DNA of 64,000 bases from an uncultured Candidatus Saccharibacteria bacterium (GTDB lineage Bacteria; Patescibacteriota; UBA1384; CAZZBO01): contig CAZZBO010000001.1 in the NCBI GenBank assembly GCA_964652345.1, forward strand, positions 3,892 to 67,891. The letters run 5' to 3'. A model generated the notes under the pieces. That model did not search any database. It was not told where the DNA came from and saw only the letters and a program-made list of their open reading frames with translations. Position numbers and translations under genes: made by a program. This document shows, one piece after another, positions 58,969 through 59,010 of the stretch. Each line of letters opens with the position of its first letter. Positions within the stretch are counted from its first letter, which is position 1.

Positions 58969-59010
58969 TTATTACACTTTGCTACGCCTAGGCGTAGCAA
59001 AGTGTAATAA
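58969..59010. repeat. perfect 42-bp palindrome (centre CCTAGG)
   Basis: TTATTACACTTTGCTACGCCT|AGGCGTAGCAAAGTGTAATAA; both halves are exact reverse complements. Confidence 0.95.

Follow-up and report, generated by a model that had tools for sequence, protein, structure and literature searches.

A single-copy, perfect 42-bp palindrome in a lineage-specific spacer between two divergent promoters

The window, by which we mean the whole stretch of 64,000 nucleotides (64 kb) analysed here, carries a perfect 42-bp palindrome, P, between two divergent promoters. We tentatively interpret P as a young, lineage-specific expansion of an inverted repeat that lies outside the conserved regulatory design of its locus, and give this reading a probability of roughly 0.4. 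A recent origin is suggested by the perfect symmetry of P, its single copy and its absence from two outgroups.

The palindrome and its reproducibility

The sequence-only reading had claimed an exact inverted repeat of 21+21 nucleotides at 58969-59010, and this was borne out: the left arm (58969-58989, TTATTACACTTTGCTACGCCT) and the right arm (58990-59010, AGGCGTAGCAAAGTGTAATAA) are 100% complementary and abut with a 0-nt spacer. The symmetry ends abruptly on both sides, where A faces A at 58968/59011. None of the 21 pairs is a mismatch or a G.U pair, and the arm contains neither an internal dyad nor a TGTACA core. The predicted fold is a 19-bp stem with a 4-nt loop, and the region folds as single-stranded DNA with a z of -7.8. 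P is the longest perfect hairpin of the 64-kb window, the runners-up having stems of 13 and 12 bp, and the longest stems in shuffled windows (n=20) were 8-11 bp. On the base composition of the window, the chance expectation for a 21-bp zero-spacer palindrome is 64000 x 0.278^21, or about 1e-7 per window; the claim that such a palindrome is very unlikely by chance was thus upheld. As a class, long perfect hairpins are not rare, since those with stems of at least 17 bp numbered about 10 in 1.06 Mb of fetched loci, or about 1 per 100 kb.

Several side observations concern the sequence of P and palindromes elsewhere. CCTAGG occurs once in the 64 kb, at the centre of P, against 5.3 expected occurrences, and the frequency of CTAG across the window is half of that expected. 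In other Patescibacteria metagenome-assembled genomes, long perfect palindromes lie directly 5' of the M16 peptidase gene (L026, 5890-5970, and L021, 5960-5996), with sizes of 17+17 and an 18-bp stem. In L026, paired neighbouring hairpins of the form AAGGTC...GACCTT are related to each other, and this genome may thus have a REP-like family.

P showed no sign of belonging to a dispersed repeat. A second half-site with up to 3 mismatches was found neither in the 64-kb window nor in L003, which carries the locus 6.9 kb past the window (about 73 kb of the genome). The 30-nt core gave 0 matches in 185,579 GTDB species-representative genomes, and an 18-nt half-site gave 0 matches in IMG/VR. The same half-site matched five times in JGI metagenomes; these matches share nothing beyond the 18-mer and lie on contigs of different G+C content, and by their sequence they are chance matches. 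Short motifs derived from P, which were used in a regulon search, occur in the window at chance frequency, and a 15-nt identity to P at 12023-12037 lies inside a gene and was judged to be chance. No flanking direct repeat or target-site duplication was found around P. The sequence-only reading had named occurrence at many loci as the finding that would speak against a local site, and the search was negative in the window, in L003, in the GTDB representatives, in IMG/VR and in JGI. Its remark that the site is not dif-like and lacks CRISPR-like repetition also held. P resembles REP/BIME, MITE and other dispersed palindromes in being an intergenic palindrome with a GTAG/CTAC motif, but, unlike them, it occurs once in about 73 kb, is missing from all three public collections that were searched and lacks flanking duplication.

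The palindrome was also recovered from independent assemblies. Same-strain Logan contigs, found by exact-sequence look-up of the proteins encoded on both sides of P, contained its centre in at least four runs (SRR15603312, SRR30024181, SRR32129869 and SRR32129872) and were 99.98-100% identical to the window; all samples with the locus represent one strain at this level of DNA identity. Likewise, the 90% cluster of the adjoining 407-aa protein has one other member, which represents this same gene on identical DNA but starts at GTG. The left-side contigs L001, L002 and L100 end at 58995, whereas the right-side contigs begin at 58975 (L004), 58981 (L006) and 58982 (L003). The centre of P (...ACGCCTAGGCGT...) is hence read from the left and from the right, which indicates that P is present in the reads and is no product of a single assembler. 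In all, k=31 contigs from five runs (six were recovered overall) reach the P locus, and all of them end within P except L005, which starts at 59026. Ends inside P are explained by the behaviour of de Bruijn graphs, which should break wherever a perfect palindrome exceeds k in length. The palindrome itself is what makes assemblies break reproducibly at this place, and it accounts for the shared k=31 contig break point of this organism. The join across P is genuine because its two flanks are adjacent in related genomes. Chimeric reads can yield palindromes and the short-read contigs do end within P, as an assembly or library artefact would have it; however, identical k-mers cover the centre from both sides in at least four runs, whose accessions fall in three widely separated ranges, and the flanks are syntenic with those of relatives, making an artefact barely conceivable.

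The divergent region, its relatives and the origin of P

P had been placed in a 720-bp divergent intergenic region. Its position between divergent units stands, but the region is not empty, as it contains a promoter-to-terminator unit at 59100-59485, and the true inter-promoter spacer is 58904-59070. The features of the region are as follows.

57626-58849, minus strand: gene for the 407-aa Phd/YefM-like protein, with an N-terminal fold domain, a long tail and a C-terminal D-M-Q-I motif
58875-58903, minus strand: promoter-like site of the Phd/YefM-like gene, TTGACA-17-TATGCT, with the -35 box at 58898-58903, followed by a GGAGG ribosome-binding site
58904-59070, no strand: inter-promoter spacer of 167 bp, with P mid-way (65 nt on its left, 60 nt on its right)
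58927-58956, plus strand: promoter-like site P1, TTGATA-18-TATATT, 10/12 consensus matches
58969-59010, no strand: palindrome P, perfect, 42 bp (21+21), centre CCTAGG, single copy within the window
59016-59046, no strand: hairpin H2, 12-nt arms with one mismatch and a 7-nt loop, 5 nt beyond P
59071-59099, plus strand: strong promoter-like site P2, TTGACA-17-TAAAAT, 11/12 matches, serving the hairpin-dense unit
59100-59485, plus strand: hairpin-dense transcription unit of about 9 stem-loops; includes, at 59114-59440, a 108-aa hydrophobic ORF of doubtful status
59449-59485, plus strand: intrinsic terminator of the hairpin-dense unit, 10-bp stem with 7 G-C pairs and tail TTTTTCTTTT

P is centred at 58989.5, close to the point midway between the two -35 boxes (58987); each -35 box is about 86 bp away from it, and it overlaps no core promoter. 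P1 ends 13 nt 5' of P, and a start site there would fall about 5 nt before P. In the A+T-rich region around P, promoter-like matches, P1 included, occur at chance frequency (6 versus 5.1 +/- 2.4 expected). A tRNA/tmRNA scan found none near P. Rfam searches of P, its neighbours and L087, in gathering and E-value modes, returned generic hairpin (miRNA-type) models alone, far under threshold. In the literature, nothing directly relevant was found on 42-bp perfect palindromes or on cruciforms between divergent promoters.

The organism is Patescibacteria-like. In a large protein collection, only two other lineages had the same gene pair: L087 and R3, the latter comprising L096-L099. The best M16 peptidase match among GTDB species representatives is just 40% identical, indicating that no close relatives are present there. 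L087 has an M16 peptidase 65% identical to that of the window and full synteny (xer, MFS, PAP2, 200-aa gene, Phd-like gene, small ORF, M16, ndk), and R3 encodes a 426-aa orthologue of the Phd-like protein. Both keep the -35 box, the -10 box and the ribosome-binding site of the Phd-like gene as well as the opposing TTGACA promoter, and the start region downstream of P2 is alignable with both. The distance from -35 box to -35 box is 63-66 bp in L087 and R3 versus 168 bp in the window, so that the window has about 100 bp of extra, lineage-specific spacer DNA, which contains P and the second hairpin. The L087 and R3 spacers contain no inverted repeats of at least 8 nt, and k=31 contigs run straight through them. 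Thus, conservation in relatives, which the sequence-only reading had suggested examining, was not found: both lineages have the gene pair and the promoters without the palindrome. These comparisons show an ancestral layout of two back-to-back, predicted sigma-70-type promoters with -35 boxes 63-66 bp apart, kept in two lineages; one promoter drives the gene for an orphan Phd/YefM-fold protein and the other a hairpin-dense RNA. The two outgroups are distant (60-65% protein identity) and their intergenic DNA is barely alignable; P could also have been lost from both, or foreign DNA could have been inserted in this lineage. The small-ORF unit between PAP2 and M16 is missing altogether from the more distant L088 and L090.

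A separate observation in this neighbourhood is a 361-aa acidic ORF at 52960-54045 on the plus strand, between ychF and xer, which is absent from the syntenic L087 and R3 loci. It has no Pfam or NCBIfam match and constitutes a second lineage-specific addition.

A single template-switching event can produce perfect stems (PMC8794818), and inverted repeats in promoters can grow by template switching as well (PMC13100816). We propose that the extra ~100 bp may have arisen by local duplication of a promoter-proximal module consisting of a promoter and a 5'-terminal hairpin, and that a single replication template switch could then have copied 21 nt as their reverse complement, giving a zero-spacer, mismatch-free palindrome in one step. 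A promoter followed immediately by a 5'-terminal hairpin is present in all three lineages, and P is equivalently placed behind the 58927-58956 site. The stretches 58923-58945 and 59067-59089, the latter in the P2 region, match at 19/23 nt (p ~0.03-0.04, found after looking). A 144-nt global alignment of the putative duplicate scored 36 versus 23.2 +/- 5.7 for shuffled sequences, 13/500 of which reached that score (p ~0.03). On this sequence comparison, the duplication traces are a weak, marginal signal, and P1 is possibly a diverged duplicate of P2. A young age of P is further suggested by its lack of G.U pairs and mismatches, compared with ~12-13% G.U pairs in the stems next door, which appear to be under selection as RNA.

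P thus shares with template-switch inverted-repeat expansion (quasi-palindrome correction) a mismatch-free reverse-complement copy that adjoins its template, lies in a promoter region and occurs in one lineage. Two differences should be noted: no ancestral single arm can be identified confidently in the outgroups, which leaves the event inferred rather than reconstructed, and P, with 21 nt per arm and zero spacer, is long compared with RNA helices, which are typically 2-10 bp (PMC8794818). A MAFFT alignment that would make the P arm homologous to the -10/-35 region of an outgroup promoter was rejected, as such matches are, by estimate, expected by chance; the similarity of the arm to the two outgroups, both without P, is at chance level.

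Any action of P would probably stem from its structure and not from a specific protein. As a 42-bp perfect palindrome with A+T-rich ends, P is a plausible candidate for cruciform formation in DNA; of the roles that the sequence-only reading had offered, a structure-forming element is thus the one that stays plausible from the sequence itself, and that reading is partly supported. In the twin-domain model of transcription, negative supercoils accumulate between diverging polymerases, and P could extrude as a cruciform under such supercoiling between the two polymerases that diverge from it. If transcribed from the 58927-58956 site, P would form a 5' stem-loop of 19-21 bp ahead of the hairpin-dense RNA. 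Its effect on both promoters is expected to be at most modulatory and possibly nil. By itself, P would matter little, as a snapshot of the birth of an inverted repeat in promoter DNA, yet it may serve as a clean natural test case for the effects of cruciforms or hairpins between divergent promoters in a reduced genome.

Operator, RNA hairpin and recombination-site interpretations

The sequence-only reading had proposed that P is a high-affinity operator for a dimeric regulator. A candidate binder does adjoin P: the 407-aa protein encoded next door has an N-terminal domain with a predicted Phd/YefM fold, proteins of the YefM type repress their own genes as dimers with palindromic recognition sites (PMC1802561), and the near-exactly central position of P between the two -35 boxes would suit a shared regulatory site. 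In this scheme, the dimeric N-domain of the 407-aa protein, or another dimeric regulator, would control one or both promoters through P. However, the conservation check failed. The palindrome is absent upstream of the orthologues in L087 and R3 and of the family members in L008 and L090; 0/5 family members of other genomes have an upstream palindrome, and upstream inverted repeats of at least 8 nt are lacking in L087, R3 (L096-L099) and L008, with weak ones in L090. The geometry is also unsuitable. The E. coli YefM operator consists of a 14-bp and a 6-bp palindrome, 12 bp apart from centre to centre, that cover the -10 box, and YefM homologues have paired motifs within 80 bp of the start codon (PMC1802561). 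Like the L and S palindromes of E. coli yefM-yoeB, P is palindromic and lies upstream of a gene for a protein with the Phd/YefM dimeric DNA-binding fold. Unlike these paired sites of 6-14 bp over the -10 box, P is one 42-bp site without a TGTACA core, centred 140 bp upstream of the ATG at 58849 and ~86 bp past the -35 box at 58898-58903, leaving the core promoter uncovered, and it is not conserved with the gene. Its exact symmetry of 21 nt per arm exceeds what the short half-sites of YefM need (PMC1802561), and the window contains no extra half-sites. Moreover, the 407-aa protein differs from Phd/YefM systems in having no toxin partner and a disordered tail of ~350 aa. Since P is unconserved and its geometry unsuitable, the operator interpretation is weakened, and we consider it somewhat unlikely. 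It is distinctly unlikely that this lineage has recently gained P as a high-affinity site for the orphan Phd/YefM-fold protein, which would use it to control both its own gene and the hairpin-dense RNA; if this were true, protein, P and RNA would form a previously undescribed regulatory module of this Patescibacteria clade, caught mid-rewiring in one lineage.

A role of P at the RNA level, with its hairpin serving as an intrinsic terminator or insulator that keeps transcription from crossing between the promoters, or as the body of a ~55-nt small RNA from the 58927-58956 site, is unlikely. A consensus scan scored P as terminator-like on the plus strand (19-bp stem, 7 G-C pairs, 4-nt loop, tail AATGGTTTTG), P is directly followed by TTTTAAAAG on the minus strand, the promoter-like site ends 13 nt upstream, and several long perfect hairpins of other loci look terminator-like by eye. 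Nevertheless, the T-tract is displaced on the plus strand (AAUGGUUUUG, accepted by the scan) and comprises only 4 U on the minus strand (UUUUAAAAG), and A-U pairs alone make up the base of the stem. P shares with intrinsic terminators, which are often bidirectional, a long perfect stem, a 4-nt loop and nearby A/T runs, but lies upstream of both flanking promoters and not at a 3' end: no gene or known transcript ends there, and both flanking units are transcribed away from it. The chance frequency of promoter-like matches, the lack of an Rfam family beyond generic hairpin models and the fact that relatives manage without P also argue against such a role. For a recombination or mobile-DNA site (the end of a mobile element or MITE, a Xer/dif-like site, a target of a hairpin-binding nuclease or a hairpin-telomere resolution site), one could point to the tyrosine recombinase gene 4 kb away (54053-55009), to the short-read contigs ending inside P and to its location within lineage-specific extra DNA. 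Protelomerase target sites, such as telRL of phage N15 and that of PY54, are moreover perfect palindromes of a few tens of bp, a length similar to that of P. However, the window copy of the recombinase is of Xer type, the gene is present in the window, L087, R3, L088 and L090 and syntenic in all relatives, and the orthologous loci of L087 and R3 lack P. P is also single-copy and has no target-site duplication or internal cargo, its half-site is absent from IMG/VR and its 30-nt core from the GTDB representatives, and contigs assembled at k=31 are expected to break at a perfect palindrome. A recombination site with CCTAGG as its core would lack direction, since this core is fully symmetric. In contrast to protelomerase targets, P resides in a chromosomal housekeeping neighbourhood; its flanks are adjacent in relatives, indicating that the chromosome is continuous here, and no protelomerase gene was seen among the scanned neighbours. 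A dif site, origin or terminus at P was likewise rejected, because no GC-skew switch occurs there: the skew is positive over 56-64 kb and beyond that tracks gene orientation. The suggestion of a recombinase or nuclease target thus found no support, the nearby tyrosine recombinase being a conserved Xer-type housekeeping enzyme whose gene is kept by relatives that lack the site, and we regard a recombination or mobile-DNA site as highly improbable.

The Phd/YefM-fold protein and structured RNAs near and far

The orphan Phd/YefM-fold protein and the stem-loop RNA locus next to it are, in our view, a better lead than P. The 407-aa product has no direct Pfam match. When its first 62 residues were searched exhaustively with HMMER, a small family of 10 representatives among 1.84 billion emerged, and a word-indexed protein search with the 62-aa N-domain as the query gave 0 candidates. 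Several N-domain homologues exceed the threshold of PF02604 (PhdYeFM_antitox), and the family profile matches the YefM-type antitoxin Rv2865 (PDB 3g5o, E = 0.011). The AlphaFold2 model of the N-domain had a pLDDT of 82, and its top 44 Foldseek PDB matches, which include DNA-bound complexes, were all Phd/YefM/RelB-type antitoxins (TM 0.6-0.76). According to this model, the N-terminal ~55 aa of the protein adopt the Phd/YefM antitoxin fold. The remaining ~350 residues are rich in Ser/Thr/Pro/Asn and lead to a conserved C-terminal D(M/L)xI motif. No toxin gene adjoins the Phd/YefM-fold gene in the loci examined.

This rare family has members at 57626-58849 (minus) in the window, 7965-9071 (minus) in L087, 292-1572 in L096, 6307-6729 (minus) in L090 and 5634-5795 (minus) in L008. 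Most members have a long disordered tail, and several have a C-terminal acidic-hydrophobic motif, e.g. D(M/L)xI. The gene neighbourhood is a housekeeping one (xer, PAP2, M16 peptidase) in this Patescibacteria clade.

The hairpin-dense unit (59100 to ~59490) consists almost wholly of consecutive stem-loops and is the most structured stretch of the window, with a minimum free energy of -150.7 versus -98.7 +/- 5 for shuffled sequences (z = -10.5). Syntenic hairpin-dense units occur in L087 (9215-9950, plus strand, z = -17) and in R3 (L098, 1-385, minus strand, z = -9). The fold of the sense strand is 37-76 kcal/mol more stable than that of the antisense strand in each of the three lineages and contains 3-6x more G.U pairs; this strand-specific folding and the many G.U pairs indicate selection at the RNA level. 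The units of the three lineages are unalignable in sequence, and the window and L087 units have no Rfam match. The small hydrophobic ORF of the window (108 aa, 59114-59440) has a weak codon score and is not among the called genes. A perfect AAGGAGG site accompanies the small ORF of L087, which shows weak similarity to the ORF of R3; a comparison of hairpin positions between these two ORFs revealed no shared pairs in register.

Other structured stretches were noted far from P. An exact direct repeat of ~55 nt at 5109-5163 and 8425-8479 contains the hairpin GCGTATTTTGC-TTT-GCAAAATACGC. The copy at 8425-8479 lies just 5' of two tRNA genes, and that at 5109-5163 is within a G+C-rich (0.58), strongly folding intergenic stretch (5080-5300) that has no Rfam match and may be an unannotated RNA gene. 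A G+C-rich intergenic stretch of L090 (19351-19800) also folds strongly and may be an RNA gene.
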